Shown here: positions 1 to 62,243 of the stretch, in pieces
How positions within the stretch are numbered: position 1 is the stretch's first letter
How the letters are laid out: every line of letters begins with the position of its first letter
Source of the DNA: a virus
Virus record (IMG/VR): IMGVR_UViG_3300031111_000011
Span: 1 to 64,000 of that record
Length of the DNA: 64,000 nt
Direction: 5' to 3' (one strand)
Notes under the pieces: generated by a model
Told to the model about the DNA's origin: nothing
Database searches by the model: none
Seen by the model: only the letters and a program-made list of their open reading frames with translations
Made by a program: the position numbers and the translations under genes

Positions 1-94
1 GCAGGAGGGATCTTTGATCCCGTATGCCAGAATGGTGAACGAAAGTACCCCCAAGGTACTTTCGAATCACCTATGAAACTAATATACTAATAAA

Positions 95-126
95 CCCAGT
101 TCTTCAGGAACTGGGTTATTTTTTTT
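95..126 (+). terminator. rho-independent terminator hairpin (cccagttc/gaactggg) with T-tract
   Basis: 8-bp perfect stem, 5-nt loop, followed by ttatttttttt. Confidence 0.6.
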
Positions 127-281
127 GAAAAAAATAATATTATATTTTCTATTAGAGAACCCCTTTAGGGGTTCTAATAAATAATATTTAGTATTAATAG
201 AGCCGCCGCTCTATAAGCGGCGTCTATAGAGCCAACCTACCCCGACCCCCTATTTCCGAGTGTGTGCAGATCTGAGAACCA

Positions 282-311
282 GTTGCAAAAATTCCGTGTG
301 AGGGTGTATAT
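282..311 (+). promoter_or_regulatory. sigma70-like promoter TTGCAA-N18-TATATA
   Basis: Near-consensus -35/-10; a TGAGAA half-site lies just upstream at 266-276. Confidence 0.4.
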
Positions 312-340
312 ATACGCCTGAGAACTCGCGGGAGAACTTC

Positions 341-364
341 GGGGCACCCCCTCCGGGGTGCCCC
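341..364. repeat. perfect 10-bp inverted repeat GGGGCACCCC-ctcc-GGGGTGCCCC
   Basis: Strong GC hairpin in the non-coding leader; no T-tract, so not a classic terminator. Confidence 0.6.
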
Positions 365-370
365 CCCCAG

Positions 371-400
371 TATCTGACAACATCTGACAGTATCTGACCA
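371..400 (+). repeat. three tandem 10-bp direct repeats (t/c)ATCTGAC(a/c), iteron-like
   Basis: tatctgacaa / catctgacag / tatctgacca are head-to-tail; shares an ATCTGA core with the palindrome family. Confidence 0.55.
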
Positions 401-858
401 TCCTCATCCTCTCCGCACAAGGTGACTGGGCACCACACTGAGCCACCACTCACCCTGGTCATCATCCTGTACCACTACGACCACACCACACACAACACAC
501 TGAATACATGGCACATACTCACCTCTCACCCTGCGGTATTGTGACCACATTGTGACCTATGGTCCATAGACATCTAAAGGATCGGGAGAAGTGGGTTGTC
601 CTGGTCCTGGTATGGTCCAGGCTAATCACTGCTAATCGTGCGCCCTGGTACGTGAAATCGTATTTCATTATGACATGGCATGTGATGACATTTCACAAAA
701 AGTGTCTCACTATGTGTCTCACTGAGACAACACACCACACTAAGCACCTGATATTACAAGACCCACCTAAGTCACCTACTGGTGACTAATTACCTTCCTG
801 CATTTTATTTCATCTTTTTTGAGAAAAAGAGCATTTGTGAGGAAATCGGAGCTTTTTG

Positions 859-874: not shown

Positions 875-1477
875 GACACACCAAAAACCGGTCCTAATCG
901 GGTCTTATCAGACTTGAGAAGTTGAGTGGGGTTGCGTATAACCAAGCCACGTTGTGAGGGAAACCACAACGGACACGGCGCAAGCCACGTCGCTCTTTTA
1001 CATAGAAGGCCACACGGGATGAGAGGCACAGGGGAAACGGTGCCAGCGAGTAAACCCCATCAATAACATCTCACCTCGTGGCGATGACAAAGATCGGCAG
1101 GGATTTCCCCTGGGGAACGGCTACCCGTCAAGGTCTACTTACTCAAGCCTCAACTTGAGACGCCCAAAATAGTGGCTACGTAGATAAACGGTTAGGGCCG
1201 AGAGCCCAAACGATAACAAAACACACTCAACACGACTCACCATAGCTTGCTTACGGAAAAGTAAGGGATGCGGATGGTGGCAAGTTACTTGCCTTAATAT
1301 CCATTGAAAGCGTCATCCATCGGAAAAGTACGGGCTTCCTGGTGAGTTGTCTCTCCTCTGCTCTCTCATTGGAACATAGAACGGCGTCCCTTTTCATCCC
1401 TTGACATGGTTTCGACTAGGTCATGCGGACAGGATATCACGCCTCGTCGGTCCTTTCGAGGGAGTTGAGGGGAAACC

Positions 1478-1510
1478 AAAGCCCACCATTTAGGTGGTGG
1501 GCTCTGTTTT
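1478..1510 (+). terminator. rho-independent terminator (agcccaccat/ggtggtgggct + tctgtttt)
   Basis: 10-bp stem and T-tract just upstream of the first CDS; would end a non-coding transcript from the 880-1510 region. Confidence 0.6.
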
Positions 1511-1541
1511 CCCTTCAACCTAAGCACAAGGAGCACAGACT

Positions 1542-1847
1542 ATGAAAAAAACTGAACTCTACTTTGGCATGGAAGTCCACGGACGGGATGATGTTACCGA
1601 AGATGAATTCAACGAATTCCTGGAGAGGCATGTCTCCCCTGCTTTTCCTGACGGCCTGACCGTTACCGATGCGCAAGGCCAATGGCTTTCACCCGTGGCT
1701 GGTCTGGTCAAGGAAGGCTCGAAGATCCTGATTCTGCTCCACGATGGCGCGGACAACGCCATTGAATCCATCCGCAATATTTACAAAGCTCTCTTTGCTC
1801 AGGACAGCGTCCTTCGCATTGATCATGCCGTCAACGTCTCTTTCTAA
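1542..1847 (+). CDS. hypothetical protein (101 aa)
   Basis: ORF with SD aaggagcacagactATG. Confidence 0.55.
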   Translation: MKKTELYFGMEVHGRDDVTEDEFNEFLERHVSPAFPDGLTVTDAQGQWLSPVAGLVKEGSKILILLHDGADNAIESIRNIYKALFAQDSVLRIDHAVNVSF

Positions 1848-7248: not shown

Positions 7249-8028
7249 ATGGAAAAACTCAGAGAGGCAATGTCCAAGGTGCTACGAGACGTAGGCGAAG
7301 GGTACGAACTGTTCTTGCTGGTTACTTACCACAGTCAGACCACTGGGGTCACCATCTTGGACAAGGATCTGACCATCCTCTGGTACAACCCATATGTCCA
7401 AAAATACTTTGGCCTTGAGTTCATTAACACTAATTACCTTGACAGGTTTCCTGGGGAGCAGAGAGAGGCCACGAAGAGTCAACTGCGGCAAGCAGAAAGG
7501 ACCGGGGTCAGTGATCCTGCGCTCCTTCAGCCCCCAGGTGTTGAGATGGTTGTCGAAAGGCGCATCTGGGCAGTCTCAGGCGGGTACATCGCCGCATCCT
7601 ACGACCACACCGTACTCACTCAAGCAGAACAACGCACCAAGGATGTACAGACCACACTGACCCTCTTAGCTGAGGCGCGGGAGGGGCTGATACGGGATGC
7701 CCAACTCAAGACACTGGATATGATGGAAACTCACTGCAAGGCAATCTGCGGCAAATATGGGAACCGAAGCCCGTATGAGTGCAAGTCGAGAAAGAAAGTG
7801 CTGGCTGAGATCCTGGCAGGTAGGCCCAGGCTCCAGACCACACTCACTGACACTGAACTGGAGGTGGCTCGGCTCTACCAAGCGGGTCATCGGAGAAAGG
7901 AGGTTGCCGAGATCCTCGATGTGTCTGAGCATACGGTAAAAAATCATAGTACCTCCATCAGAAAAAAGCTTGGCATGAACAACCCAAGTGTGTCCCTTAT
8001 TGAGTATCTTCAACGGTTTACCTTATAG
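7249..8028 (+). CDS. LuxR/FixJ-family transcriptional regulator with N-terminal PAS-like sensor domain (259 aa)
   Basis: C-terminal HTH TDTELEVARLYQAGHRRKEVAEILDVSEHTVKNHSTSIRKKLGM matches the LuxR-type HTH signature; the N-terminal ~120 aa have PAS-like composition. Confidence 0.7.
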   Translation: MEKLREAMSKVLRDVGEGYELFLLVTYHSQTTGVTILDKDLTILWYNPYVQKYFGLEFINTNYLDRFPGEQREATKSQLRQAERTGVSDPALLQPPGVEMVVERRIWAVSGGYIAASYDHTVLTQAEQRTKDVQTTLTLLAEAREGLIRDAQLKTLDMMETHCKAICGKYGNRSPYECKSRKKVLAEILAGRPRLQTTLTDTELEVARLYQAGHRRKEVAEILDVSEHTVKNHSTSIRKKLGMNNPSVSLIEYLQRFTL

Positions 8029-10465: not shown

Positions 10466-10719
10466 GAATTCAACTCACTCCAGAGGAGATCGACGGACTG
10501 AAGACGTGGTTGGCGTACCCAAAGAAGGTCCGCAGAGGGGAATGTCCGTTTGTCTTTGTGCCGGGGAATACCTGTGCTCGTATCTGCCGCATGGTTTTTC
10601 CGGGTGATGAACTCGGCCTGTGCCCCTGTGACCAAGAGGGCGCAGACCATAAAAAAATCTATGAAGTTGCACGAGAAGGTGCGGAAAGGGGGTACATCAC
10701 AATTGGACTCGGACATTAA
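10462..10719 (+). CDS. hypothetical Cys-containing protein (85 aa)
   Basis: ATGA overlap; internal Met of listed ORF 10375-10719. Confidence 0.45.
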   Translation: MRIQLTPEEIDGLKTWLAYPKKVRRGECPFVFVPGNTCARICRMVFPGDELGLCPCDQEGADHKKIYEVAREGAERGYITIGLGH

Positions 10720-11713
10720 TGGCACGGTGATTTTTCTGACACCGTTTGGATCGCATCTCTACGGTACATCCACTCCGGAGTCGGATCTGGACTACAAGGG
10801 GGTGTATCTGCCGACAAAGGAGCAGATCCTGATCGGGAAGATCCCCAAGACTATCACTCGAAACACCAAGGTCGGAGAGGGGAAGAACAGCAAGGAAGAC
10901 ATTGACTTTCAACTTTATTCTCTCCCCTACTTTGTGGACCTTCTGGTCCAGGGTGAAACGTCGGCTATCGACATGATCCATGTCCGAAAGGATCAAGCTC
11001 TCGTGTGGACGGATGAGTGGGAACGGCTGCACCGCAACCGTCACATGAGCTACAGCAGAAATATGAAGGCGTTCGTCGGGTATGCCCGTAAACAAGCGGC
11101 CAAGTACGGGGTCAAAGGCAGTCGCCTTGCAGCCATGCAAGACGTCCTTGAATACCTGATGGCCTATATCCAGAAGGAGATTCTGTATGATTATGAACGT
11201 GATACCAAACTTCGAGACGTATGGGATGATCTTCCTGATGGTGATCATATTCATCGTCTTGATCCGACTGATCGAACTCCTTATCGCATGTATCAGGTCT
11301 GTGGGAAGAAGTTTATGGAGACAGTCAAGATTCGAGAAGTCTACGCTTCGATCAAGAAGTCCTATGATCAATACGGTCACCGGGCAGAACTGGCGAAGAA
11401 GAATCAGGGCATCGACTGGAAGGCAGTATCCCACGCACTCCGTGCGGCTTACCAACTGGTGGAAATCTTTGGGTCCGGGGATCTGGCCTTTCCACTCGCT
11501 GATGCGGCTTATCTGCGGAAAGTGAAGGAAGGCTCACTGGACTGGACCTCCTGGGTTCAACCCCACCTGGAGGAAATGATGGGCCGGGTGGAGTGTATGG
11601 CCTCTCTCTCCAAATTCCCAGAACAAGTGGACCGGACCTTCTGGAACAATCTGACTATCGACATCATGGAAACGTGGTTACTTACTCAAACTGTAGGAGG
11701 TGAATTATGCTGA
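10661..11713 (+). CDS. nucleotidyltransferase (Pol-beta/minimal NTase fold) of unknown specificity (~350 aa)
   Basis: TPFGSHLYGTSTPESDLDYKG fits hG[GS]-x9-13-D-x-[DE]; a third acidic motif EDIDFQLY lies ~45 aa downstream; start uncertain (ATG 10661 overlaps upstream gene). Confidence 0.55.
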   Translation: MKLHEKVRKGGTSQLDSDINGTVIFLTPFGSHLYGTSTPESDLDYKGVYLPTKEQILIGKIPKTITRNTKVGEGKNSKEDIDFQLYSLPYFVDLLVQGETSAIDMIHVRKDQALVWTDEWERLHRNRHMSYSRNMKAFVGYARKQAAKYGVKGSRLAAMQDVLEYLMAYIQKEILYDYERDTKLRDVWDDLPDGDHIHRLDPTDRTPYRMYQVCGKKFMETVKIREVYASIKKSYDQYGHRAELAKKNQGIDWKAVSHALRAAYQLVEIFGSGDLAFPLADAAYLRKVKEGSLDWTSWVQPHLEEMMGRVECMASLSKFPEQVDRTFWNNLTIDIMETWLLTQTVGGELC

Positions 11714-12774
11714 AGAACGTGACTATTTGTGGCTACAACGTGCGTGAAATCAATCTGGTACTGGCCGAGGACAACACCCCGCTTTACTCTGTGGGAGATC
11801 TCATGATGCCCATGGGGTTCACCCGCTACTCTGCGGCATCCAGGGTCAGGTCCATCCCGGAGCTTACCCACACCAAAATCAAGCTGCCCTCCACGGCCCA
11901 GGCGATTCATGTGGTGACCCCGGAGGGTGTCCTGGCCTTAGCCGAGACGGGGAAGTGTCGTACCAATTTCGTTTCGGAATTTCGATCCTATTGCCAGAAG
12001 GAGGGCATCCCCCTGCCCGATCCGGAAGTCACGCCGGATGGTCCCGCCGTCTTCAACGGCATCGAGATCACCTTCGAGGACGATGTCCTGGTGAGCCTGA
12101 CGGACATGTGGAAAGCGGACGGATCTCGTCAGGCCAAGAAACCCGTCCACTTCCTGAAAACGGATGGGACTGTGGAGTTTATCGAACAAATTCGGGAGGA
12201 AATAAAAGGTAAGGAATCTTACCTTTTACGATCTATCCCTGGTCGAGGTGGTGGAACCTACGCTCACTGGAAGATCGCTGTCCAGTATGCGGCTTTCCTC
12301 AGCCCCAAGTTCGCAAGCTGGATGGCCGATCTGGTCCGGGTCCGGTTCATCGAGATCAACGATCCGGAGCAGGGTGCCAAGCTGTACCGGGAACGTGCGA
12401 TCACCGACCGGATGAACAAGACCGGCTGCTCCCGTGAACAGGCAATCCACTATTTCGAGAAGAGCCTCGTCGCACGAAAAACGGTTTCGTCTCAGATCTG
12501 CCGGTTCGTTCCCAATGCGAGGAAACATATCGCTGAGATCACGGATCATCTCAATATGGGCTTTATCGGAATGAGAGCCCAGGACATCAAGAAAACCCGT
12601 GGGGTTTCCCAGACCCGTGAATCGTTTACCCTTGCGGAGCAGATGGGGGTGGCGTTTCTGGAACAGTGCATGATCGATCATATCGATCAAGTGAGATACG
12701 AAGCTGACCCGTACCACCTGCGGGATATGGCGTACTCCAACGGGCAAAAATGCCGAGCCATGATGGTGCGCTAA
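11707..12774 (+). CDS. Bro-N + KilA-N domain protein (antirepressor-like, 355 aa)
   Basis: N-terminal Bro-N-like LYSVGDLMMPMGF; central KilA-N-like GTYAHWKIAVQYAAFLSPKFASWMADL; SD ggaggtgaattATG. Confidence 0.6.
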   Translation: MLKNVTICGYNVREINLVLAEDNTPLYSVGDLMMPMGFTRYSAASRVRSIPELTHTKIKLPSTAQAIHVVTPEGVLALAETGKCRTNFVSEFRSYCQKEGIPLPDPEVTPDGPAVFNGIEITFEDDVLVSLTDMWKADGSRQAKKPVHFLKTDGTVEFIEQIREEIKGKESYLLRSIPGRGGGTYAHWKIAVQYAAFLSPKFASWMADLVRVRFIEINDPEQGAKLYRERAITDRMNKTGCSREQAIHYFEKSLVARKTVSSQICRFVPNARKHIAEITDHLNMGFIGMRAQDIKKTRGVSQTRESFTLAEQMGVAFLEQCMIDHIDQVRYEADPYHLRDMAYSNGQKCRAMMVR

Positions 12775-26422: not shown

Positions 26423-26438
26423 TTCTCAATATTGAAAA
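26423..26438. promoter_or_regulatory. palindromic element TTCTCA-atat-TGAAAA (family copy 6)
   Basis: Directly upstream of SD aaaaggagg of rtcB. Confidence 0.45.
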
Positions 26439-26446
26439 GGAGGACT

Positions 26447-27661
26447 ATGGAAAAGGTCATGTTTTCATCAGGCAGAATCCCTGCCTACTCATGGTTACCA
26501 GTGGACAAACTGGAGGAAGGCGCTCTGGAACAGATCCAGGCTTGCACTGCCCACCCCAAGGCTTACCACCACATGGCTGTGATGCCCGACTGTCACCAGG
26601 GATATGGGATGCCCATTGGCGGTGTGGTTGCCCTGGACGGCGCAATCAGCCCCAACATGGTGGGGGTGGACATCGGCTGTGGGATGAGTGTGGTCCGCAC
26701 CAACGCCAAATTCGTTCACACTTATCAAATCAAGGAAATCCTGAACCGACTCAAGACCATGGTTCCTGTCGGTGAGGGGAAGTTTCGATCTGACCCCGTC
26801 TCCTGGCCCAAGTGGGTGGAGTATCTGGACAAGGTCAAGGAGCGTCCTGACTGGATGAAGGGCTCTAACTGGCATCGGTTCAAGTGCAGCATGGGAACTC
26901 TGGGAGGTGGGAACCACTTTCTGGAGCTTCAGCGGGATGAAGAGGGTTACCTCTACATGATGCTCCACTCCGGTTCCCGTGGCCTGGGGTACGCCATTGC
27001 CAAGTACTACAACGAACTGGCCCAGACCTACTGCGTCAACCTAGACATCCCCAACAAAGATCTGGCTTACCTGCCGACCGATCACAAGTGGGGGCAAGCC
27101 TACATCCGGGACATGAACTTCGCCCTGGCTTTTGCCAAGGAAAACCGCAGGGTCATGATGGATGCCTTCAAATTCGCTTTCTTCCACGTTCTTGGATCTC
27201 CTGTCCGGGAGGACATTGATGTTGTCGATGAGATCGACATCCACCACAACTACGCGGCATTGGAGCACCACTTCGGCAAGGATCTGTGGGTTCACCGGAA
27301 AGGCGCGACTTCGGCCCAGTCTGGACAACTGGGGATCATTCCCGGTTCCATGGGAACCCACTCCTACGTCGTCGCTGGTAAGGGGAACCCGGACTCCTTC
27401 AAGTCCTGCTCCCACGGTGCTGGTCGAGTGAAGGGTCGGATGGCCGCTACTCGTGAACTCGACCGGATGGAGCAGGAGAGGAAGATGGACGGCATTGTCT
27501 TTGACGGGTTCAAAACCCTGAAGAAGGGTAAGCTGAAAGGTGCGTATGACCTGGGCGAAGCCCCTGATGCCTACAAAAATATTGATACTGTCATGTGGCA
27601 CCAGGGGGATCTGGTGGACGTGGTAGTAAAACTCAAACCGATAGGAGTCTTGAAAGGGTGA
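26447..27661 (+). CDS. rtcB: RNA-splicing ligase RtcB (3'-phosphate/5'-OH RNA ligase, 404 aa)
   Basis: RtcB signatures HMAVMPDCHQGYG, GGNHFLELQ, MLHSGSRGLG, CSHGAGR; ATG 4 nt after SD. Confidence 0.9.
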   Translation: MEKVMFSSGRIPAYSWLPVDKLEEGALEQIQACTAHPKAYHHMAVMPDCHQGYGMPIGGVVALDGAISPNMVGVDIGCGMSVVRTNAKFVHTYQIKEILNRLKTMVPVGEGKFRSDPVSWPKWVEYLDKVKERPDWMKGSNWHRFKCSMGTLGGGNHFLELQRDEEGYLYMMLHSGSRGLGYAIAKYYNELAQTYCVNLDIPNKDLAYLPTDHKWGQAYIRDMNFALAFAKENRRVMMDAFKFAFFHVLGSPVREDIDVVDEIDIHHNYAALEHHFGKDLWVHRKGATSAQSGQLGIIPGSMGTHSYVVAGKGNPDSFKSCSHGAGRVKGRMAATRELDRMEQERKMDGIVFDGFKTLKKGKLKGAYDLGEAPDAYKNIDTVMWHQGDLVDVVVKLKPIGVLKG

Positions 27662-28638: not shown

Positions 28639-28937
28639 AGCTGATCTGCTGTCCCTCTTGTTGGGACGTGTTCAAACTCGCCAAGGAAGAGCGCACCTGC
28701 TCATGCGGACGGTGCTCAGGCAGGTACCTCAACAACACCTACGCCGAGACAAATGGTGAGGGAATCAACCTCGCCATTGGCAACGGGTCACTCCTGCAAG
28801 CGGCTTACAACCTCGACCACTTTGCGAAGGACGCAGAGCGTCACGAGTTCATCGACCACAACCCCGTGATCTGTTGGGTCCGTCCTCCAGAAGGACCGGG
28901 AAACCCACACACCACTGTACGAAAGGAGGAATCATGA
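28635..28937 (+). CDS. Cys-rich protein (100 aa)
   Basis: ATGA overlap; CCPSC...CSCGRC cluster. Confidence 0.5.
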   Translation: MKLICCPSCWDVFKLAKEERTCSCGRCSGRYLNNTYAETNGEGINLAIGNGSLLQAAYNLDHFAKDAERHEFIDHNPVICWVRPPEGPGNPHTTVRKEES

Positions 28938-30322
28938 ACCCCATTCTGAATACTGACTCTTACAAAGCGAGTCATTACAGGCAGTACCCTGAAGATGTGG
29001 CCTGGGTGAGTTCCTATATCGAAGCACGGGGTGGAAAATACCCTGAGACGGTTTTCTTCGGGCTGCAAGCCTTCCTGAAGGAGTACCTAAGCAAACCCTT
29101 CACCCAGGCTCATATCAATGAGGCAGAGGACTTCTGGGAGGCTCACGGCCTCCCGTTCAATCGGGGAGGGTGGGAATACATCCTCGCCAGATACCGGGGC
29201 TATATGCCTATTTTGATCCAGGCGGTGGATGAGGGCTCGGTGGTTCCCACTGGCAATGTTCTTGTTCAGATTATTAACACTGACCCTGAAGTTCCCTGGA
29301 TCACCAGCTACGTGGAAACCGCTCTGCTCCGGGCAATCTGGTACCCCACCACGGTGGCTACCCTTTCCCACTTCTGCAAGCGAGATCTCTACAACTACTG
29401 GAAGGAGTCGAGTGACGCTCCTATTGAGTCCCTGGACTTCAAACTTCACGACTTCGGTGCTCGTGGGGTGAGTTCCCTGGAATCTGCTGGACTGGGTGGG
29501 ATGGCCCACCTCGTCAACTTCAAAGGCACCGATACGGTGGAAGGGGTTCTCGCTGCAAGACGGTACTACAACGAGCCCATGGCAGGATACTCAATCCCTG
29601 CTGCCGAGCACTCCACCATCTGCTCCTGGGGCGGTCCAGGACGAGAAATGGATGCCTTCCGAAACATGATCAGCCAGTTCGGTGGAGACTATCCACTGAT
29701 CGCTGTGGTCAGCGATTCGTACAATATCTGGGACGCAGTGGATAACAAATGGCCTTACCTGGATACCGAGATCAGTGCCAGTGGGTCCACCATCGTGGTC
29801 CGTCCGGACAGTGGAGATCCCCACATCGTACCTGTCGAGGTGATCAGCCGTCTCATGCAGAAGTTCGGATTCACGGTCAATAGCAAGGGCTACCACGTCC
29901 TTCCGGATCGAATTCGAGTTATCCAAGGCGACGGGATTACCGGCGATAGCCTGAATCGCATCCTGTTCAACCTCCGGATGAAGCGTCTCAGCATCGACAA
30001 TATTGCCTTTGGTATGGGTGGTGGGCTGCTCCAGCAGATCAACCGGGATACCTGCAAGTTCGCCATGAAGTGCAGTGCGGTTGCTGGCAAGAGCAACCAA
30101 TGGCAACCGGTGTTCAAGCAACCTGTGGATCAGCCTGACAAGGTGAGCAAAAAGGGTCGGCTGAACCTGATCCGGAACTCGGATGGTGAGTTCGAGACGG
30201 TCCCGGAGAAGTGGGAAGAGTCGCGGGGGGTTATGCCCATCCGGAGCATTAACGGGCTCCGCTACCACACCACAACTTTCGAGGAAATCCGGGGACGGGT
30301 CCAGGAGCACCTCATTGCTTAG
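28934..30322 (+). CDS. nadV: nicotinamide phosphoribosyltransferase (NAMPT/NadV, 462 aa)
   Basis: MNPILNTDSYKASHYRQYPE N-terminus and overall length typical of NAMPT; SD aaaggaggaatcATG. Confidence 0.85.
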   Translation: MNPILNTDSYKASHYRQYPEDVAWVSSYIEARGGKYPETVFFGLQAFLKEYLSKPFTQAHINEAEDFWEAHGLPFNRGGWEYILARYRGYMPILIQAVDEGSVVPTGNVLVQIINTDPEVPWITSYVETALLRAIWYPTTVATLSHFCKRDLYNYWKESSDAPIESLDFKLHDFGARGVSSLESAGLGGMAHLVNFKGTDTVEGVLAARRYYNEPMAGYSIPAAEHSTICSWGGPGREMDAFRNMISQFGGDYPLIAVVSDSYNIWDAVDNKWPYLDTEISASGSTIVVRPDSGDPHIVPVEVISRLMQKFGFTVNSKGYHVLPDRIRVIQGDGITGDSLNRILFNLRMKRLSIDNIAFGMGGGLLQQINRDTCKFAMKCSAVAGKSNQWQPVFKQPVDQPDKVSKKGRLNLIRNSDGEFETVPEKWEESRGVMPIRSINGLRYHTTTFEEIRGRVQEHLIA

Positions 30323-30821
30323 AGTCGGAGTCTTTGTTGGCAGATGCCAACCTTTCCACAAGGGGCATGAGCAGATCATCCGTCAGATGCTCCATGAACG
30401 TGGAACAGAGCGGTGTGTCATTCTCTTGGGGAGCATCAATGCTCCCCTTTCCGCTAAGAACCCTTTCCCCTACCCCACTCGTTATCAGTGGGTGAAGAAC
30501 ACCTTCCAGTATGTCCATGTCTTGGGCATTCCGGACTTCCCCGACAATGATGACTACTGGCTCTTCCATATCATGCAAGTTCTCAAGCTCCCTTACGTGG
30601 AGAGTGTTGACCCTTATTTCTACGTAGGCAGTGAGAGAGACGGTCGGGTCTACCACGAGCGTGGATTCACAACCATGATCGTTCCGCGCAGTAAGCAGTA
30701 CAGTGGGACTGAGATCCGAAGACGGCTTGCAGCCGGTGAGGACTTCAGTGAATTGGTGAGCGACCCTGAGTACGCTCAGTCAGTGAAGAGTGTGTGGGAC
30801 ACTGTGAAACATGCAATTTGA
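30315..30821 (+). CDS. nicotinamide/nicotinate mononucleotide adenylyltransferase (NMNAT, NadM-like, 168 aa, TTG start)
   Basis: Nucleotidyltransferase (H/T)xGH motif VGVFVGRCQPFHKGH; size fits archaeal/phage-type NMNAT; only in-frame start preserving the motif is TTG 30315 overlapping the nadV stop. Confidence 0.7.
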   Translation: MLRVGVFVGRCQPFHKGHEQIIRQMLHERGTERCVILLGSINAPLSAKNPFPYPTRYQWVKNTFQYVHVLGIPDFPDNDDYWLFHIMQVLKLPYVESVDPYFYVGSERDGRVYHERGFTTMIVPRSKQYSGTEIRRRLAAGEDFSELVSDPEYAQSVKSVWDTVKHAI

Positions 30822-36587: not shown

Positions 36588-36997
36588 TACACCCCCTTCT
36601 TGAGCGCCATGAAGTCAGCGATCTTGCGGTAACCGAAAGCAGATCCTACGGCGATGCCGAGCATCCATTGGTACCACTGTGGGCAGGTAGCCAGGGCAGC
36701 AAACCCGACTGTGACCCACCCTGCTCCGGTTGGAAAGAAACAGAGGATGGCAGGAATCGAAAGGACAATGGTAAACCATTCATCCTTCCACCCGCTCTGG
36801 TTGATGGAGGTGTTCTCCCAGGCGATGTCCCCCTGCTGTTGGGTGAGCATCTTATTAATGGTAGCTTCGGTTTTCGCCTCAGTCACCTTGACCTTGGATT
36901 CAACCTCCACCTCTTTGATACGTTGCCGATGTCGGAACCAATCTGTGACGGGGGCCATCAGACCCCCGACCAGATCACCAAGGATCTTACCGACCAC
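36587..36997 (-). CDS. putative holin/membrane protein (136 aa, C-terminal TM helices)
   Basis: Hydrophobic segments FTIVLSIPAILCFF, WVTVGFAALATC, MLGIAVGSAFGY; last of the structural cluster. Confidence 0.5.
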   Translation of the reverse strand: MVGKILGDLVGGLMAPVTDWFRHRQRIKEVEVESKVKVTEAKTEATINKMLTQQQGDIAWENTSINQSGWKDEWFTIVLSIPAILCFFPTGAGWVTVGFAALATCPQWYQWMLGIAVGSAFGYRKIADFMALKKGV

Positions 36998-39900
36998 TTC
37001 GTGACTCCTTCATAGTTTCCTTGATGATGTCGTGACGCTCCAGGATTAACAGGTCGATCTCTTCCCGCTTCTCCTGGGCAGTCATATCCTCATCAAGTTG
37101 GATAGCATCGATTTCCTTATTGATGGCTCTCACCTGTTTCATTGAGGCATTCATCAGTGGTCGGAGTTCGATCTTATCCTGGTTGTTGTCATAGTAGTTG
37201 TCAGCTTCAAGATCATCCTTTGCACTCCAAGATCTGAACGCTGTGTCTACCTCGGCAGCGAGGTCGTAGAACCGTTCGTAGTGCTTGGTGTACCCAGGAG
37301 TGTCGTGTCGCATCATTCCACCATTGAGCAGGTAGTAGTCCTCTTTTACGAGGGCTGGATCGGTTGGGAAGGACATCAGGTGCGGCATCACAATGTGGTC
37401 CGTCAGGGTGAGAGCGAGACGACCCACTGTTGCGAATTGGCTGTTGATGAAGTGGTCAAGGCGCTGTGGTGAAATAAACCCAGTGAGTTTACCAATGCCA
37501 CGAGCGGTCTTGCTGGTGCGGTGAGTCCACTGCATGTCAGGGTCAAGACTCTGTTTGCTCCGACTTACAATAGGAGCCCCCGTGTACCCGTCCTCACCCC
37601 CTTCACCGTCAGTCTGGGCCAGGACTTCCTCCATGAGAGGAGGAAAGCCAACTGCGAAGGTTTCCCGGAGGGTCTTCCAGGCAAACTTACCGACACTACC
37701 GTACTCACCTTCCTGCCAAGCTTCTGCCATGGCAGTTGGGAGTCCACTGAAGATCGCGCCTACCTCGAAAGGCATCGGGATCTGGAAGCGTTCTCCAAAG
37801 GCGTAGACATGGTAGTATCCCCACTTCTGGTGATACGGCAGATCACGATACTTGACCTTACGGTCTTCATCGTCATCGTGTGCCGTGTTCCATGCGTGGA
37901 GTGCCAGGGTCAGAGCCGAGAGCATTGCCCCTTTGTAGAGGATCTGCTTGCGGATCATCCCCAGAGCCCGTTTATCTTTACGGGCTTCACGAGCAAGTTT
38001 GTACAGACCCTGGATTCGAGCGTTGAGGAATGGGACCGTTCTTGTGAATACAGCAACGAATCCACTCTCTCCGCTCAGTCCGAAGTCCAGGATGTCCTTC
38101 GCTTCGAAAGCAGCCTCGAAGGAACTCTTGCCTTGAGCTTTTGTATTCTGGTAGAGGGCAACTCGCGTTGCCGACTCACTGAGCTCCATGAGCTTGCCCA
38201 GTTTACCTTCGCCCTTCATTGCCTTCTTGATTGCCTTCTGAGCACCCAGTGGATTGTCCGCACGGTAGTACCCACCAGAGAACCCACCACCCTGACTCAT
38301 CATCTCGACAACGTCTGGATGATTCCGCAGAGTAGCCCACATCCCCTTAGCCGTATCCACAACAGGAATGAACCCGTCCTTCATCACACCGGTAGCCATG
38401 GTGTCCCTGGTCATGTTTCGAACATGGAACCACGGGTTAGCGGTCACACCAAAGGTGAGCCCTCGCTTGAGTCCACCCATGATCTGGAAGACGGTGTTGT
38501 TCAGCCCCTTATGGTTAAGCTCCGTGAGAGCCTGGAACACATCGTTATCCTCGACCTTATAATACCGGGCCTTACCATCCACCCGAATCGAAATCAGATC
38601 GTTGCGTTTGGCAAGATCCTTCGGGTTACCCAGTACCCTGGTCATGAATGCCGATGTCCCCTTCTTCTCGCTCACCATGCCATTGGCTTTCAGTGAGTTG
38701 TAGAGCTTCTTGCGGGAGATGTTCTTGAGACTCTGGTCGATCAGGTACGTGTAGTTCATGACGAGATTCTCGATAGGATCACCGATCATCCCTTCCTTTT
38801 CACCTTCCTTGAGAGCCTTCACCGTACCCACGAACTTGTCGAGGGCTGTCGGTGCTTGGCTACCAAAGACCCCCTCTTCCTCCAGGTCGAAGACCCGGTT
38901 CAGAGGAATGTACACGTCCTTACGCCATGCCTTTTCCCATTCAGGATTCCAGATACCCGCCTTCCGGCAGAACTCTTTTACCGATTCATTATACTCCTTC
39001 AGGTGAGCCTTGACTTTGTCGTACTCACCGGCCTTGAGTTGATTATCAGCAGCCGCTCTGAGCTTTGCGATCTCAGCGTCAGTGTCGATGCCTTTACCAA
39101 AGATCCCGTCAGCAAACTCGCTACCTTTGACCCGTTTCAGTTCATCCACGGTGTCGGCAACAAGCCGAGCTTTGACGGCTTTCATGGTCTGGGCATCCAT
39201 ACCTTCAAACACACTGAGGAGCCCCTTCGAAGCATCCGGACGAGTAATGACCCAGTGGGTTGCCTTGTTGTACATTGGCTTGCCATGATGCAGGATCGTA
39301 CCCATGATTGCTGGCATCGATTGATGGAGACGACGGGACATGTACGCCGACATCTCAGCACCAACCCCAAGCTTCTCTTCGAGGGTCTTGAGCTTCCGGA
39401 ACCGGTCAACGCCCGTCAGGATTGTCCACTCCTTGAAGGCAGTGGCTGTGTCCACGGGATGACTCACTCCATCCAGGATCTTGGCAGCAGCACCCTTGAT
39501 GGTGTCCATCTTGGTTTTCCCCTCGCTCAGAGCGAGGTTCTTGGTAGCCTCATCCAGATCACGGGCCTTAGAATACTTACCCTTGATCCCTCGATCTTCA
39601 AGATGCTTGCGGTAAAGCTTATCCAACTCACTCTGGTCGCTGTAGAGCTTCTCAGGCAGGTTGAACTTCTTATGGAGTTGACCAATAGGGTCACCACCCG
39701 CCTCTCGTTTGAGGTATTCAAGCGGAGTCAGACCATCATGTTTCCATGGATTTCCTTTCACCTTAGTAGATCGGTGTTCAGTAAGGCCGTACTCGAAGTC
39801 GTATTTAAAGTCCTCCAGCGTTTTTCCTTGGGCTTCGGCAACGACCTTCATCCAGATAGCAGCCTGAACCTCTCTCGGGGACCACTCGTGATCAGTCTCC

Positions 39901-42900
39901 TCGCTGAGTTCATGAGCAAGTTGAAACAGCTTACGACGAGAAGCAGTATGCTCATCAGCCAGGAAGTTGGAGTCCAGAGTGGCAATCTCGAAGTTATGAG
40001 GAGCCTCTTCACCGTCCTTGAGAAGCCCTGCGTCCTTCCGCTCTCTGTACTCAGTCACCTCATTCCTGCTCTTGATGGCTGCGCGTACATTGGAAGCTGA
40101 GAGCAGAACGTGGCCGAAAAAGGCCCGATGCATCCACATATCATTCGTGGTTGCCTCAGTGTCACCTGTGAGAGCCCGGATAAACTCATCGACCTTATAA
40201 TTCTTGCTGAACGTCAGGTCGCCTGACAGAATCCGATCAAGGGCTTTCTTAACATTGGATGGGTATTTGCCTCCTGGTTTGTCACGCTTACCCATAAGGT
40301 AGAGGTACGTGTCCACCGCAAACTGGGTGTTGGTAGTAGCCTTCGCGTTAGGCGAAGTGAGCCCAAGGAGAATGTTGAAGAGAGGGGCATCCTTACCGAA
40401 GACCCTCTTAACTGTCTCCTGGTGGTTACTATACCATGTGACGGCTCGTGGGTTCTCCACGAGAACCTGCTTACACCAGTCCTTGTACTCTTTGTCAGTG
40501 TGTTTAAACTCACTCCACTCTCGCATATCCTTATGGATCAGCCGGTTCTTAGCAACCTCAAGGAGGTTGTCGATGTCCTTCATAGTAAGGGACACTTTGT
40601 CATCCGAGAACCCCATCACCTTTTTCAGCCATGCGTTCATGAACTCAAGGAACTTCTGGAAAACTTGCTTGCGCTTCATCGGGTTAAGTTTTTCGGCCCG
40701 ACGAGCGATCACCTCTTCGACAATGAGTCGGCGTTTCTCGATCTCCTTCTGTTCAGGAGTGAGGTCTTTCCGACCAGCGATATTCTTAAGGTCATCAGCA
40801 TAGAGATCCTTGACCTCCGCGTAAGCCTTCTTGGATTTCCTGATAGCAACATAAGCGCTGTCAAGGAACTCCTTGAAGAGTTTACCCGCCTCGTCCTTGG
40901 TGCTGCGAGTGTCAAACAGCTTGAGAAGCCCCCGGTGACCCACTTGCTCGTGGAGCCACACTTGGGTTGCACGTTTGGTGTCAGACAGACTGTCGGCCAC
41001 AAAGTAGATCTTGTCGGCCTCTTCATCCCACACTGCTTCCACACGGACCCCATTATTGGTGTCCTCTTTGGAGAGACGGTGCTTCTCAGGAAGCTGGTCA
41101 TGAGACTCAACCAATTCAATCTTGGCACCGCGACTACCCACCAGCTTCTGGAGTGTGTGGAGCTTGTCAAAGATCTGCTTTGAGGACTCTTTCTTGAGTT
41201 TACTCCGAGCCATCTTAGCAGCCTTGCTGTAACGAGGATTCCCTTCCTCGTCGTACTTCAGAGGGGTCTTCCTGTCGTTTGTCCCTTCAGGAGCAACATT
41301 CCCCGAACTATCCTCTTCGTAGGTCACACCTTCCTTGAGATCGTGTTTGACTTTAACCTTGCCCGATCCCTCGTACTTCTTCCTACCCCACTCCCTAAGA
41401 GGTTTCTCCTCAACCTCCCAGGTTCCATCAGCCTGTTCCACTGGCTGGTGCGTAAGTGGGTCTTCAAATTTCCGGATAGCTCGTTTGGCTGCTTCCTTGT
41501 TCTTATAGACCTTGCCTACGGTCTTGCTGACCGTAGGGGCTGGTTCGGATGTGACATTCGACGGAACATTTTCAACCTGCTTAGACTTCGGAGTGAGGAT
41601 TTCCTTGGTCTTGTCACCCAGGCCGAGCTCCATGTTGGCTTTCTCAGCCAGAGCCTCAGCGTCAGCTTTACGTTGAGCATCGACCTTCCTGCTTTCCTCA
41701 GCGGCTTTCCGTTTTTCAACAGCAGCTACCTGGGAAGGATGGAGGGCTGGTTTCGCCTCAAGCTTTGCGCCTTCTTTTTGGAAGAAGGCAGCATCGCTCT
41801 TGGCCTTCTGATCCACGACCTTGGCTTGTTGACTTTGTTGTTCTGCCTCGATGCCAGAGCGCACCTCTCCCGCCATCTGGGATTTCTGGACAGATCGTTT
41901 TTGCTCACTTGCCCGTTTAGTAGTCGCTGCTTTCTCAGCGATCTCAGCACGGGCTTTCTCGTTGGCACGAGCTTCACGTTCAGCCTTCCCTCGTGTCGTA
42001 GAAGGGTTCCCAGGTTGTTTACTTGCTTCCTTACGCGCCTGTTCCTGACGAGCTTGAACCTCAAGACGATCCACTTGCTCTTCGAGACGTTGGGCAAGAC
42101 CATCTGTGAGGACACCCATCCGAGGATCTCCAGTGGATGCTTTGAGAGCACTCAGGTCGTACATGACTCCCTTGAGTTTTGGGATACTCTCCTCACCAAC
42201 CACGAGAGCCCGGTGAGCAGCACGGAGAGACTTGGCAGCAGCCTTGTGCTCCTTAACCTCACTACCTTCCAGAGCGGGGAGCATGTTGTGGACAGCACCC
42301 ATCAGCCCTTTCGGAGTAGACACAAAGTCAACGAACTGCTGGAACTTATCTCGTTCCGCAGCAGCAGCGTCCATCTGAGCTTCACGGTTCGCACGTTGAA
42401 GTTGCTCCTCCTGCATACGAGCCTCAGCAGCCATGGTCGCTTCGATCTGGCGCTGACGATCACGAGCAGTCTGTTGACGGGCTACCTCAGCCTCTGCTTG
42501 GAGTTGTTCCTTGGTTTTCGCCTCGACCTTTTCTTCAGTAGATCCTCCAACACTGAAGGCTCCAGCGTCCTCCTCGACCTTGATTCCACCTTGGTCATCA
42601 TCCTTAGCAAAAGCCGTATCCAAATCTTCAGGAACTGAAGGCGCAGTTGTCTTGTTGGTTTCCGCATCAGCATTGGTTTCACCCTCCGCATCTGCTTCGG
42701 TTTGTTTCTTTGCCTTGACATGGGCGATGACATCGAATGGAGCTTTCACAGCAACACCGGCACCTGGGAGAAGCATACCGCCCACTGCACCGATCTTCAT
42801 GCTCTCGTTCCGGGAAGCTTTGAACTCCTCAGAACCTACCACCTCTTTGAAATCGTCAATGAGTTCCCCAACAGGAGCATCAGGGTTGGCCGCATACACA

Positions 42901-43694
42901 TCAGCAGCAGCCTCAGTGTACGCCTGGATTCCTTCTTCAAGACCCTCTCCAGCAGCACCTTGCATAAGCTTGCCGATGTAGAGCTTGAGCTTGTCACCCA
43001 TTTTCAGGGATTTTCCGAAGGCTCCTGCGACACGCTTCAGTGAGTTGATTTGGAGAAGGTTCCCGGCCATTTCAGCAGGGGTTCCAAGGGCAGCGTGAAT
43101 CAGAGCAGCATTGAACCGCACGTCCTCATCCTCGATCCCCTTGTCAATGAGATCCTTGTCCTTTTCCCCCATCATCTGCATGAAGGTAGTGGCTGTTCCG
43201 ACTGGAGCACTGAGTGCAGACGCAACCATAGAGGCACCATAGCGGCTCAGGCCAACACCAGCTTCTTCGATGGTTCCGAGAATGGTCCCTTTTTTGGAAG
43301 GGTCCATTTCATCCACTTTGTCTGGAAGGGCTTCTTCTACAGAGCCAATGTCCTCAACAGCTTGTTTACGCTTTGCTGTGTGTGGGTCATCCTGCGCAGC
43401 TTCAGCGGATCGCTTACGCATCTGAGCAAGATATCCACCGGAATTTAGTTCGACAGGCTTACCATCAAGGGTCCGATCCTGGAGCACCTTTGTGCCGTGG
43501 ATTGCATCTGAAAGGCCAACCCCAAGGGATTGGCCCATTCGTTTCAGGGCACCTGAGTGTTCTTCTTCGGGTTCGGATGTATTGAGTTGCTCGATCTCAG
43601 ACTCATCCACGTCCTCGATCACAAAGGTTTGTGTTTTTGGTTTTTCAGCTTCAAACTCGTCTTGATCGATATCCTCAATAATGAACTTTGCCAC
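36987..43694 (-). CDS. giant internal virion/ejection protein (2235 aa), T7 gp16-like position
   Basis: Acidic N-terminus, glycine-zipper-like hydrophobic patch, long coiled coils; follows two gp14/gp15-like proteins. Confidence 0.7.
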   Translation of the reverse strand: MAKFIIEDIDQDEFEAEKPKTQTFVIEDVDESEIEQLNTSEPEEEHSGALKRMGQSLGVGLSDAIHGTKVLQDRTLDGKPVELNSGGYLAQMRKRSAEAAQDDPHTAKRKQAVEDIGSVEEALPDKVDEMDPSKKGTILGTIEEAGVGLSRYGASMVASALSAPVGTATTFMQMMGEKDKDLIDKGIEDEDVRFNAALIHAALGTPAEMAGNLLQINSLKRVAGAFGKSLKMGDKLKLYIGKLMQGAAGEGLEEGIQAYTEAAADVYAANPDAPVGELIDDFKEVVGSEEFKASRNESMKIGAVGGMLLPGAGVAVKAPFDVIAHVKAKKQTEADAEGETNADAETNKTTAPSVPEDLDTAFAKDDDQGGIKVEEDAGAFSVGGSTEEKVEAKTKEQLQAEAEVARQQTARDRQRQIEATMAAEARMQEEQLQRANREAQMDAAAAERDKFQQFVDFVSTPKGLMGAVHNMLPALEGSEVKEHKAAAKSLRAAHRALVVGEESIPKLKGVMYDLSALKASTGDPRMGVLTDGLAQRLEEQVDRLEVQARQEQARKEASKQPGNPSTTRGKAEREARANEKARAEIAEKAATTKRASEQKRSVQKSQMAGEVRSGIEAEQQSQQAKVVDQKAKSDAAFFQKEGAKLEAKPALHPSQVAAVEKRKAAEESRKVDAQRKADAEALAEKANMELGLGDKTKEILTPKSKQVENVPSNVTSEPAPTVSKTVGKVYKNKEAAKRAIRKFEDPLTHQPVEQADGTWEVEEKPLREWGRKKYEGSGKVKVKHDLKEGVTYEEDSSGNVAPEGTNDRKTPLKYDEEGNPRYSKAAKMARSKLKKESSKQIFDKLHTLQKLVGSRGAKIELVESHDQLPEKHRLSKEDTNNGVRVEAVWDEEADKIYFVADSLSDTKRATQVWLHEQVGHRGLLKLFDTRSTKDEAGKLFKEFLDSAYVAIRKSKKAYAEVKDLYADDLKNIAGRKDLTPEQKEIEKRRLIVEEVIARRAEKLNPMKRKQVFQKFLEFMNAWLKKVMGFSDDKVSLTMKDIDNLLEVAKNRLIHKDMREWSEFKHTDKEYKDWCKQVLVENPRAVTWYSNHQETVKRVFGKDAPLFNILLGLTSPNAKATTNTQFAVDTYLYLMGKRDKPGGKYPSNVKKALDRILSGDLTFSKNYKVDEFIRALTGDTEATTNDMWMHRAFFGHVLLSASNVRAAIKSRNEVTEYRERKDAGLLKDGEEAPHNFEIATLDSNFLADEHTASRRKLFQLAHELSEETDHEWSPREVQAAIWMKVVAEAQGKTLEDFKYDFEYGLTEHRSTKVKGNPWKHDGLTPLEYLKREAGGDPIGQLHKKFNLPEKLYSDQSELDKLYRKHLEDRGIKGKYSKARDLDEATKNLALSEGKTKMDTIKGAAAKILDGVSHPVDTATAFKEWTILTGVDRFRKLKTLEEKLGVGAEMSAYMSRRLHQSMPAIMGTILHHGKPMYNKATHWVITRPDASKGLLSVFEGMDAQTMKAVKARLVADTVDELKRVKGSEFADGIFGKGIDTDAEIAKLRAAADNQLKAGEYDKVKAHLKEYNESVKEFCRKAGIWNPEWEKAWRKDVYIPLNRVFDLEEEGVFGSQAPTALDKFVGTVKALKEGEKEGMIGDPIENLVMNYTYLIDQSLKNISRKKLYNSLKANGMVSEKKGTSAFMTRVLGNPKDLAKRNDLISIRVDGKARYYKVEDNDVFQALTELNHKGLNNTVFQIMGGLKRGLTFGVTANPWFHVRNMTRDTMATGVMKDGFIPVVDTAKGMWATLRNHPDVVEMMSQGGGFSGGYYRADNPLGAQKAIKKAMKGEGKLGKLMELSESATRVALYQNTKAQGKSSFEAAFEAKDILDFGLSGESGFVAVFTRTVPFLNARIQGLYKLAREARKDKRALGMIRKQILYKGAMLSALTLALHAWNTAHDDDEDRKVKYRDLPYHQKWGYYHVYAFGERFQIPMPFEVGAIFSGLPTAMAEAWQEGEYGSVGKFAWKTLRETFAVGFPPLMEEVLAQTDGEGGEDGYTGAPIVSRSKQSLDPDMQWTHRTSKTARGIGKLTGFISPQRLDHFINSQFATVGRLALTLTDHIVMPHLMSFPTDPALVKEDYYLLNGGMMRHDTPGYTKHYERFYDLAAEVDTAFRSWSAKDDLEADNYYDNNQDKIELRPLMNASMKQVRAINKEIDAIQLDEDMTAQEKREEIDLLILERHDIIKETMKESRSGR

Positions 43695-61648: not shown

Positions 61649-62065
61649 TTACTTAGTTCCGGAGAGTGGAATAACCTTCCCTGCGATAGGAGGAGCAGCC
61701 TTTGGTTGCTCTTGGGTAGGATTGCCAAGCATGAGATTGAGAACAGTTGTGTCCCCAGAACCCAGATTGACTTCGGTGGATTTGAGACGAGGAAAGCAGT
61801 ACCCCATCAGATCTTTCTCGATTGAGCGTCTCCACTTGATCTGATCTTCCAAACCTTCGAGTTCACCTGCCATCATGTAAGTGAAAAGAACCTGATCAAT
61901 CAGATCGAACTGATGGTCTTCCTTCAGTTGCTTCAGGAGAACTTTGGCCCGTTTCTGCTTATTATAGATCTGAGGCTTACGAGGTTTGCGTTTCGCTGCT
62001 TTCTTCTTCGGGGCTTTTTTCTTCGGAGGGGATTGACCTTCAACGGTCCACTCTTGGTCAGACAT
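61649..62065 (-). CDS. terS: putative terminase small subunit (139 aa from Met16)
   Basis: Basic KKKAPKKKAAKRKPRKP DNA-binding-like region; precedes terL with 2-nt spacing; start trimmed to avoid tRNA-Gln. Confidence 0.5.
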   Translation of the reverse strand: MSDQEWTVEGQSPPKKKAPKKKAAKRKPRKPQIYNKQKRAKVLLKQLKEDHQFDLIDQVLFTYMMAGELEGLEDQIKWRRSIEKDLMGYCFPRLKSTEVNLGSGDTTVLNLMLGNPTQEQPKAAPPIAGKVIPLSGTK

Positions 62066-62076
62066 GAAGTTCCTTT

Positions 62077-62151
62077 TGGAAGGGGCAGAAGGAATCGAAC
62101 CTTCCTGCACAGGTTCAAAGCCTGTTGGTTAAGCCGCTCACCCATACCCCT
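62077..62151 (-). tRNA. tRNA-Gln(TTG)
   Basis: 7-bp acceptor AGGGGTA/TGCCCCT, T-arm GGTTCGATTCC, anticodon loop CTTTGAA, CCA encoded. Confidence 0.7.
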
Positions 62152-62157
62152 ATAAGC

Positions 62158-62232
62158 TGGTCAGGGATGCTGGAATCGAACCAGCCGCCCCAAGCTTCCA
62201 AAGCCCAGGAGACTCCTTGCCGTTATCCCTGA
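62158..62232 (-). tRNA. tRNA-like gene, anticodon uncertain (possibly Pro-TGG); irregular stems
   Basis: Good acceptor TCAGGGA/TCCCTGA and T-arm GCTGG-TTCGATT-CCAGC, but D and anticodon arms pair only with several G-U wobbles; possible pseudo-tRNA. Confidence 0.4.
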
Positions 62233-62243
62233 TGATTTGCAGA

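Follow-up and report, generated by a model that had tools for sequence, protein, structure and literature searches.

What is the role of the repeat-dense DNA that precedes the early genes in the virus record IMGVR_UViG_3300031111_000011? We analysed positions 1 to 64,000 of this IMG/VR record; the whole stretch is referred to as the window in this text. An initial annotation had pointed to a cluster of short repeats at about 200–800 and had suggested a replication origin, a partition or packaging site, or an early regulatory region, the analogue of the T7 left end. Our analysis identifies a control region that acts in cis, has no genes, is dense in repeats and lies immediately before the early genes. 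The region, of a kind that is ordinary in phages, contains a conserved core of ~85–110 bp that was newly noticed here. By analogy with other phages we tentatively read it as a genome-end or packaging-initiation region that may double as an early-entry region, a reading to which we give somewhat less than an even chance. The terminus, early-promoter and origin readings are not mutually exclusive.

All repeats that had been listed are present in the sequence. Some had been placed about 10 nt off, namely the inverted repeat GTGAAAT/ATTTCAC (given as 641–685, actually 652–696) and the duplicated GTGTCTCACT with its palindrome (given as 693–722, actually 702–728). Their density is far above chance. 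We stepped 600-nt segments through the 64 kb (635 overlapping segments) and counted local 7-mer direct and inverted repeats, that is, those within 60 nt; the six segments starting at 1–501 occupied ranks 1–6. The segment 201–800 contained 26 direct and 11 inverted hits, compared to 3.0 ± 2.2 and 2.4 ± 2.0 in 500 dinucleotide shuffles, none of which reached the sum. As far as can be told, the region is non-coding: no open reading frame (ORF) in the gap exceeds 76 aa, and the ten longest have no PHROG family match. Rfam gave no match in the gap at gathering thresholds, nor did any match in an E-value scan reach the gathering score of its family.

The window is part of a circular phage genome of 66,932 bp. 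An ENA contig of 67,073 bp (k141_1898663, here L001) encodes the exact product of the first gene of the window and joins the window ends by 2,932 bases (L001 8460 corresponds to window position 1, L001 5527 to position 64000). Its length equals 66,932 + 141 bp, and it is therefore a MEGAHIT circular assembly of the 66,932-bp genome. Position 1 of the window is thus an arbitrary cut inside a 1.4–1.6-kb gene-free gap, and the "left end" is a window artefact. From 1542 to ~34 kb the genes are on the plus strand; they code for early proteins and a replication set resembling that of T7 (primase, DnaB-like helicase, family-A DNA polymerase, exonuclease, ligase and ribonucleotide reductase). Those at ~34.6–62.1 kb are on the minus strand. 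They specify a 2235-aa virion protein, tail, internal virion protein, capsid, portal, and the large and small terminases, and are followed by an array of 21 tRNA genes, 12 of them inside the window (window 62077–63735 and L001 5686–7947). We found no phage RNA polymerase in the genome. Read rightward, the leftward late genes and the 21 tRNAs are followed by a divergent pair of sigma-70 promoters, a 68-aa ORF, ~230 nt of hairpins, a strong terminator (93–125), the gene-free stretch 126–1541 and the first early gene. Together with ~0.6 kb to the left of the window, positions ~126–1541 form the single large gene-free control region of the genome, where the leftward block of tRNA, terminase and structural genes meets the rightward block of early and replication genes.

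Which parts of this region are conserved? At the DNA level we found no close phage relatives in GenBank (megablast, blastn). The large terminase, in turn, has many homologues with 50–62% identity on metagenomic contigs of 60–66 kb, from phages with portal and adaptor domains of the SU10 type; a gene for Ro60/TROVE is often found next to their tRNAs. With the terminase and then TROVE as anchors, the equivalent junction was recovered from three contigs (L004, L009 and L010), which gave four genomes together with the window phage. In each of the three, the early genes are separated from the TROVE/tRNA side by a stretch without genes, which measures 1.9 kb in L004, 2.4 kb in L009 and at least 1 kb in L010. 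Nearly nothing aligned between these gaps by BLAST. The two main conserved blocks were the leftward sigma-70 promoter, which lies outside the window and is conserved in L004, L008 and L010, and the segment 283–316.

The functional core is not singled out by repeat density, to which the initial annotation had pointed: the majority of the listed repeats (the ATCTGAC triplet, the TTGTGACC pair, ATGACAT and CTCTATA) lack conservation in the relatives. Only L010 has a counterpart of the ATCTGAC triplet, with ATCTGA, GTCTGAC and an inverted ATCTGAC in the corresponding position; L004 and L009 have none. For the ATTGTGACC pair and the GTGTCTCA copies it is L004 alone that shows counterparts (ATTGTA twice, TGTCTCA four times), with their order kept, and a TCTATAGA-type motif is also repeated in L004. 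The remaining repeats are private to this genome. Among the listed elements it is the G+C hairpin that recurs, together with the adjoining C-run and a motif that had not been listed, GTGTATAT.

These conserved parts belong to one single-copy module, of which the hairpin is the 3' part. In the four genomes it consists of an A-tract, 4–5 nt, GTGT(G), 5–7 nt, TGTAT(A/G)T, a G+C-rich spacer that keeps TGTATRT 46–49 nt from the C-run, (GGT)GC7–9 and a hairpin between a G-run and the C-run. The hairpin in the window has a DNA folding energy of −15 kcal/mol (z −2.4); those of the relatives comprise 6–9 bp, and in L004 and L009 they do not exceed what shuffled sequence gives. Outside the module, the plus strand has no exact copy of GTGTATAT, and the minus strand has one; we therefore rejected the idea of a multi-copy phage-specific promoter element, as the motif shows no genome-wide enrichment. 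Apart from the C8 run, there is no G/C homopolymer of at least 7 nt in the 66.9-kb genome (two overlapping 7-mer matches versus 14.6 expected), so that G/C homopolymers of 7 or more are avoided genome-wide. Directly upstream of the module, all four genomes have an AT-rich palindrome block, which in L009 is nearly pure A+T over ~250 nt. In the window, L004 and L009 these blocks gave strongly negative fold z-scores on both strands, which indicates symmetry of the DNA itself and not an RNA made from one strand. The orientation of the module toward the early genes is constant, and 1.17–1.58 kb separate the C-run from the first early gene in each of the four genomes. Within the reach of these searches, the module is undescribed, whereas the kind of element is known.

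We also compared the region with the nearest cultured phages, which by portal or polymerase (28–36% identity) are the HMO-2011-type phages, phiM6, the RHph_N3_13 group, MQM1 and Rollin. A gene-free gap between divergent early genes and the small-terminase/terminase block is found in phiM6 (2.55 kb), RHph_N3_13 (2.68 kb) and MQM1 (~1.6 kb). In phiM6 and RHph this gap contains ATTGAAAAAT, 9 nt, and GTGTATA(C/T)AACTATAAGTACCC(C)ACCC, in the same orientation to the early genes as in the window. Over all six genomes, AAAA.T, G and TGTAT.T are invariant. The phiM6 and RHph gaps thus resemble the region studied here in their position between divergent early genes and the terminase/structural block, their size class (2.5–2.7 kb), their dense lineage-specific short repeats, and the order of A-tract, ~9–12 nt, GTGTATA and C-rich stretch; the phages also have a homologous portal (~30–32% identity) and a family-A DNA polymerase. 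They differ in that they lack a C7+ run and a 10-bp GC hairpin, and in that the small terminase gene directly follows the gap, while here the 21-tRNA array intervenes. In MQM1, a member of the same wider portal group, the gap holds TGTATATACA and, 60 nt later, C14. The ends of Pseudomonas phage Rollin and of HMO-2011 were tried as further comparators, and no convincing module was found there.

The idea of a packaging site gains from this comparison, since in distant cultured relatives it is the equivalent gap that holds the start of packaging or of the record. The motif lies 0–88 nt from the genome position 1 chosen for phiM6 and RHph_N3_13. For phiM6, PhageTerm predicts a terminally redundant genome, and the initiating pac cleavage was set as position 1 (PMC6256558); this position is 88 nt downstream of TGTA/TA, heading toward the late genes. 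Three RHph records (RHph_N3_13, RHph_I3_11 and RHph_N3_19) start inside TGTA/TATA in two slightly different registers (TATAAC... in two records, TATATAAC... in one), heading toward the early genes. Taken together, these positions would have the look of two boundaries of a 77–88-bp terminal unit, which is our own suggestion and not a published claim. For MQM1, direct terminal repeats (DTRs) of 327 bp and T7-like packaging were reported, with no coordinates given (PMC10410586).

Applied to the window, the terminus reading says that the module and the adjoining ATCTGAC array (~285–400: A-tract, GTGTG, TGTA/TATAT, ~48 nt, GGTGC8, ATCTGAC) would mark the site where the virion DNA ends form, either as a short terminal repeat or by a pac cut. 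The AT-rich palindromes upstream and the repeats and palindromes with a 10–12-nt phase downstream would be putative sites, comparable to those of the T7 left end, at which phage proteins such as early regulators and the small terminase assemble. A terminal unit transferred from phiM6 and RHph would run from ~309 to ~396–400 and comprise the hairpin, the C-run and the ATCTGAC array. All this presumes that the phiM6 and RHph positions are true termini, that the same holds in this phage and that the repeats bind proteins, all of which we infer. What speaks for it is the location of the gap at the junction of divergent blocks, found again in the relatives and the cultured phages, and the fact that in otherwise unalignable gaps only the module, whose elements are essentially unique in the genome, and the leftward sigma-70 promoter are conserved.

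The T7 left end contains a terminal repeat, arrays of short repeats, early promoters and an RNase III site before gene 0.3. The proposed analogy to it holds in style: in both cases ~1 kb or more of gene-free DNA precedes the first early gene, many short phased direct repeats and hairpins lie on a C/A-rich, G-poor strand, and a long hairpin stands right before the first gene. Non-coding, repeat-rich DNA immediately in front of the first early genes, as at a T7-type end, is thus present. Elsewhere the genome encodes internal virion proteins and a replication module like that of T7 but no phage RNA polymerase, which makes a T7-style entry end with non-coding DNA plausible. The start of the window, being an arbitrary cut, is no evidence of a physical left end. 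Furthermore, this phage differs from T7 in lacking a phage RNA polymerase, canonical strong sigma-70 promoters in 126–1541 and any sequence similarity to the T7 end. The late genes here lie on the opposite strand, which makes the locus a divergent junction and not simply one end, and in contrast to T7 with its terminal repeat, this genome is known from assemblies alone, which assemble as a circle.

Several observations weigh against a terminus at this site. The authors of the phiM6 study describe packaging as headful, not DTR (PMC6256558). We found no paper that explains the choice of the RHph record starts, and these records are flagged circular. By our own estimate, the chance probability of finding the motif in a 2.6-kb gap is ~0.01, which is small but not negligible. 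Neither the large nor the small terminase of phiM6 and RHph is detectably homologous to its counterpart in this phage. One would therefore not expect a common recognition site for the terminase, and this favours a host-polymerase or replication element. Headful pac sites would be sought in or next to the small terminase gene, but the candidate for this gene (61649–62110) is ~5 kb away from the module, behind the tRNA array, with 21 tRNA genes and four small ORFs in between, and the element does not co-vary with the terminase, as phiM6 and RHph have the motif in common with this phage. Finally, the assemblies, including Logan contigs, run uninterrupted through the module. The packaging type could not be derived from the terminase relatives BcepC6B, KL4 and MEP301, for which the literature gave no termini.

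It is conceivable, if quite improbable, that the conserved unit is a very short terminal unit of ~80–90 bp (TGTA/TATAT, ~48 nt, C-run and repeat array) whose boundaries were kept across a terminase exchange. If so, end formation would be specified by something other than sequence recognition by the terminase, one possibility being a host polymerase or another conserved complex stalled at the motif and the hairpin. In T7, pausing of the RNA polymerase is thought to cue concatemer processing.

The next most probable explanation is an early promoter. We consider it possible, yet rather unlikely, that the module is the main early promoter for the host RNA polymerase (A-tract as UP element, TTGCAA-18-TATATA, G+C-rich discriminator and 5' stem-loop), combined with an operator cluster for early regulators, and that the transcript has a leader of ~1.2 kb with a processing hairpin at its end, ahead of the first gene. 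TTGCAA (283–288) indeed sits 18 nt upstream of TATATA (307–312), and comparable hexamers can be read in the motif of RHph (TTGAAA-17-TATAAC) and phiM6 (TTGAAA-17-TACAAC). The orientation of the module and its distance to the first early gene fit this reading, as does its conservation across phages with unrelated terminases and different hosts. Since the terminator at 93–125 shuts off the upstream unit and a sigma-70 scan lists no other plus-strand site in 126–1541, the early genes need a promoter in this interval. Operator-like palindromes are present as well, one of them on the −35 of the upstream rightward promoter. However, when L001 7800–10100 was scanned for canonical sigma-70 promoters (−35 and −10 16–18 nt apart, the −10 having A as its second and T as its sixth base), the module was rejected by the scan tool: the −10-like hexamers of all six genomes (TATATA, TATATG, TATGTG, TATAAC, TACAAC) lack the final T. 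TTGCAA or TTGAAA is found in only three of the six genomes, and L004 and L009 have no −35 at a workable distance. In both, sites that look more like a promoter lie farther downstream within the gap. These genomes have genuine sigma-70 promoters that are near-consensus (TTGACA-16-TAGAAT, TTGACA-16-TATATT), and the host polymerase therefore looks canonical. An untranslated leader of 1.2–1.6 kb would also be unusually long.

A replication origin, which had been proposed as well, appears unlikely, and we found no specific support for it. The AT-rich block at 118–200 would act as unwinding element, and the module and the phased repeats would bind an initiator or load the phage primase and the DnaB-like helicase. 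In favour of this, such a block (18% G+C in the window) lies directly upstream of the single-copy module in 4 of 4 genomes, and iteron-like repeats recur with a phase of one helical turn. The replication module (family-A DNA polymerase, primase and helicase) is shared with the phiM6/HMO-2011 group, which would explain why the motif is conserved despite the terminase swap. Iteron-type origins such as lambda ori, P1 oriR and plasmid origins typically have iterons of 17–22 bp. The locus resembles them in its AT-rich stretch beside phased direct repeats and palindromes, present once per genome, but the repeats are much shorter (7–10 nt) and fewer (2–3 copies, at most the three 10-nt ATCTGAC units that are missing from L004 and L009), and they are mostly not conserved. 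We recognised no initiator gene next to the locus or elsewhere among the early genes, nor any convincing DnaA box: GTGTATAT agrees with the DnaA box at 6–8 of 9 positions, which is improved in no genome, and ~12 such matches are expected in the gap by chance (own calculation). GTC/GAC, the sites of T7-type primases, are only mildly enriched (21 versus 13.7 ± 3.7, rank 78 of 3178). The cumulative GC skew, suggested earlier as a check, does have its minimum at 1–2 kb; however, this minimum and the maximum at ~34 kb coincide exactly with the two switches of the coding strand, from which they are inseparable, and the skew is thus uninformative.

What do the poorly conserved repeats represent? The relatives each have their own dense short repeats with a phase of ~9–12 nt (for example GGAACTAAA three times in L010 and TTGACAACC twice in L009), and so do the gaps of phiM6 (at least 8 copies of ACTTGAA), RHph and MQM1. 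Binding sites that evolve together with proteins specific to each lineage would be expected to show such a pattern; slippage in unconstrained DNA can explain part of it. Two motifs stand out in the region. TGAGAA(G/C) occurs in six copies on one strand of the 1,454-nt control region compared to 0.39 expected, a 15-fold enrichment (Poisson 3.6e-6) for a motif that was chosen post hoc. GTCTCA/TGAGAC is depleted in the window (24 versus 52.5 ± 7.4 expected), a deficit that points to avoidance of a restriction site of the GTCTC type; three copies nevertheless lie close together at 704–728. It is highly unlikely that everything apart from the module is neutral spacer in which replication slippage left short tandem duplications without function: most repeats are indeed adjacent two-copy units of 7–12 nt that are absent from relatives with a 55–62% identical terminase, in a gap that is otherwise unalignable, but against this stand the phased repeats at the same place in the relatives and in all three cultured phages, the maintained gap length, the ATTGTRA pairs and multiple GTCTCA copies that the window and L004 have in common order within unalignable DNA, and the bias of the two motifs just described.

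The terminus reading, which we favour, thus predicts termini at ~309 and ~396–400. For the clade, largely uncultured podophages of ~60–68 kb with an SU10-type portal, a family-A DNA polymerase, tRNA arrays and often Ro60/TROVE, the analysis gives the likely location of the cis-acting control centre of the genome and a short searchable signature (A-tract, GTGTG, TGTATAT, 46–49 nt, C7–9). Both can be used for orienting metagenomic assemblies and for designing read-based terminus calls, and they do not change the view of how phages work. The features of the region are listed in the table.

Table. Sequence features in and around the gene-free control region (window coordinates)
Feature	Position	Strand	Details
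Rho-independent terminator	93–125	+	11-bp stem AACCCAGTTC..GAACTGGGTT and T8; L001 8552–8576 plus T-run
AT-rich block	118–200		18% G+C; palindromes, e.g. ATTAGAGAACCCCtttAGGGGTTCTAAT at 151–178
Interleaved inverted repeats	198–233		TAGAGCCGCCGCT 198–210 / AGCGGCGTCTATA 216–228; CTCTATA 209–215 / TATAGAG 225–231 nested; direct repeat ATAGAGCC
TGAGAA(G/C)	273, 319, 869, 915 (273–921)	+	four of the six same-strand copies in the control region; the other two 406 and 495 nt left of window position 1
Conserved single-copy module	285–368	+	AAAAA 285–289, GTGTG 296–300, GTGTATAT 304–311, 49-nt G+C-rich spacer, GGTGC8 357–368
Tandem pair CGCCTGAGAACT / CGCGGGAGAACT	315–338		overlooked in the initial annotation
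Perfect 10-bp G+C hairpin	341–350 / 355–364		GGGGCACCCC ctcc GGGGTGCCCC; runs into the C8 tract 361–368
ATCTGAC, three copies	372, 382, 392 (372–398)	+	iteron-like, 10-nt phase
C/A-rich, G-poor tract	~405–535	+	C minus G = +21 per 100 nt
ATTGTGACC, two copies	538–546, 549–557	+	11-nt phase
TGGTCC three times (~600–620), GCTAATC twice (621–637)	596–637	+	lineage-specific; overlooked in the initial annotation
Inverted repeat GTGAAAT / ATTTCAC	652–658 / 690–696 (652–696)		encloses ATGACAT twice (670–676, 684–690)
GTGTCTCACT, two copies, then palindrome GTCTCAcTGAGAC	702–711, 714–723; 716–728 (702–728)		12-nt phase
Palindrome GTCACCtactGGTGAC	771–786		GTCACC tact GGTGAC; overlooked in the initial annotation
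Long imperfect hairpin	1464–1519	+	25-nt arms, 88% complementary; 22 nt upstream of the first early gene
First early gene (DUF3574)	1542–1847	+	right border of the gene-free gap

The left border of the region is formed by a short rightward transcription unit that starts left of the window, comprises the 68-aa ORF and a hairpin-rich tail, and ends at the terminator. The tail (L001 8357–8580, from ~100 nt left of the window to window position 125) contains ~5 consecutive hairpins with fold z-scores of −5 to −7 on both strands, and a similarly structured stretch is found at the matching place in L004. It could be a small RNA or a structured 3' UTR; a search of Rfam gave no match. The divergent near-consensus promoters are located 343–438 nt left of window position 1 (leftward TTGACA-16-TATATT at L001 8022–8049, minus strand; rightward TTGACA-16-TAGAAT at L001 8090–8117, plus strand). 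A perfect, operator-like palindrome, AGTGTGTTGaCAACACACT, overlaps the −35 of the rightward promoter. Its half-site, CA(A/C)CACACT, occurs nine times in the window versus 1.2 expected (431, 493, 733, 3231, 16623, 19661, 35183, 56361 and 60274); eight of the nine follow the coding strand of the genes around them, and two are placed directly at ribosome-binding sites. Three of these copies fall into the control region, those at 431 and 493 within the C/A-rich tract and the one at 733 further on.

At the right border, the hairpin at 1464–1519 may be a processing or attenuation signal. We had also considered a large structured RNA in 880–1541 (fold z −8.0 on the plus and −3.9 on the minus strand), but 200-nt windows were unremarkable, the excess is largely due to this single hairpin and nothing aligns in the relatives, so that the idea is unsupported. 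A conserved C-rich Rho-loading tract after the G+C hairpin was likewise discarded: the C over G bias is strong here and not consistently placed in the relatives. An N4-style hairpin promoter served by a virion RNA polymerase was set aside as well. The 2235-aa virion protein (36987–43694, minus strand) has an LPD38 domain and a weak DUF7178 match only, with no match to PDB sequences or to an RNA polymerase, and stem and loop sizes presumably differ from those of N4 hairpin promoters.

Two Logan contigs of an identical phage (SRR8554445) end at 87/88 and 207/208 and leave the AT-rich hairpin block 88–207 unassembled; these breaks show only that the block is hard to assemble. Contigs of relatives also end in or beside the gap, at 1,143 nt from TROVE in L008 and at 19 nt from TROVE in L017 and L018. 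The contig L004 (ENA contig_59086) measures 91 kb compared to 60–67 kb for the other relatives and may be a larger genome, a concatemer or a misassembly.

Searches of IMG/VR with the hairpin pattern, DUF3574, the terminase, a DUF932 alignment and the module pattern returned no usable relative. DUF3574 as an anchor mostly returned Streptomyces proteins, L006 and L007 were chance hits in AT-rich giant contigs, and matches to the module pattern in metagenomes and genomes (L013, L015 and L028, the last a bacterial locus) were due to chance. The only possible relative from such matches is L014 (Ga0316193_10036865, 3.8 kb), which shows the full module pattern, agrees with the L010 motif at 22 of 26 positions and has the 11-mer CTGAGAACTCG in common with window 317–327. 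It lacks the GC hairpin, and a lipoprotein-like gene comes after the motif.

TROVE genes lie beside the gap and the tRNAs in L002 (1–452), L004 (5235–6764), L009 (8001–9470), L010 (8001–9482) and L017 (20–1381); none was seen in the examined parts of the window phage. At L004 4817–4878, a tRNA model is matched over its positions 6–65 only, among repeated CGAAGTAAC...CTCACTGCC flanks, which suggests Y-RNA-like genes. In the window, an additional tRNA match at 62587–62659 was given by Rfam only. The window also encodes a LuxR-type HTH protein (7249–8028), an RlaP-type nucleotidyltransferase (10550–11713), a KilA-N protein (11707–12774) and, in the plus-strand block, RtcB (26432–27661) and, at 28874–30821, enzymes of NAD salvage, namely a nicotinamide phosphoribosyltransferase and a nucleotidyl/cytidylyltransferase-type enzyme with a weak match to nicotinamide-nucleotide adenylyltransferase.

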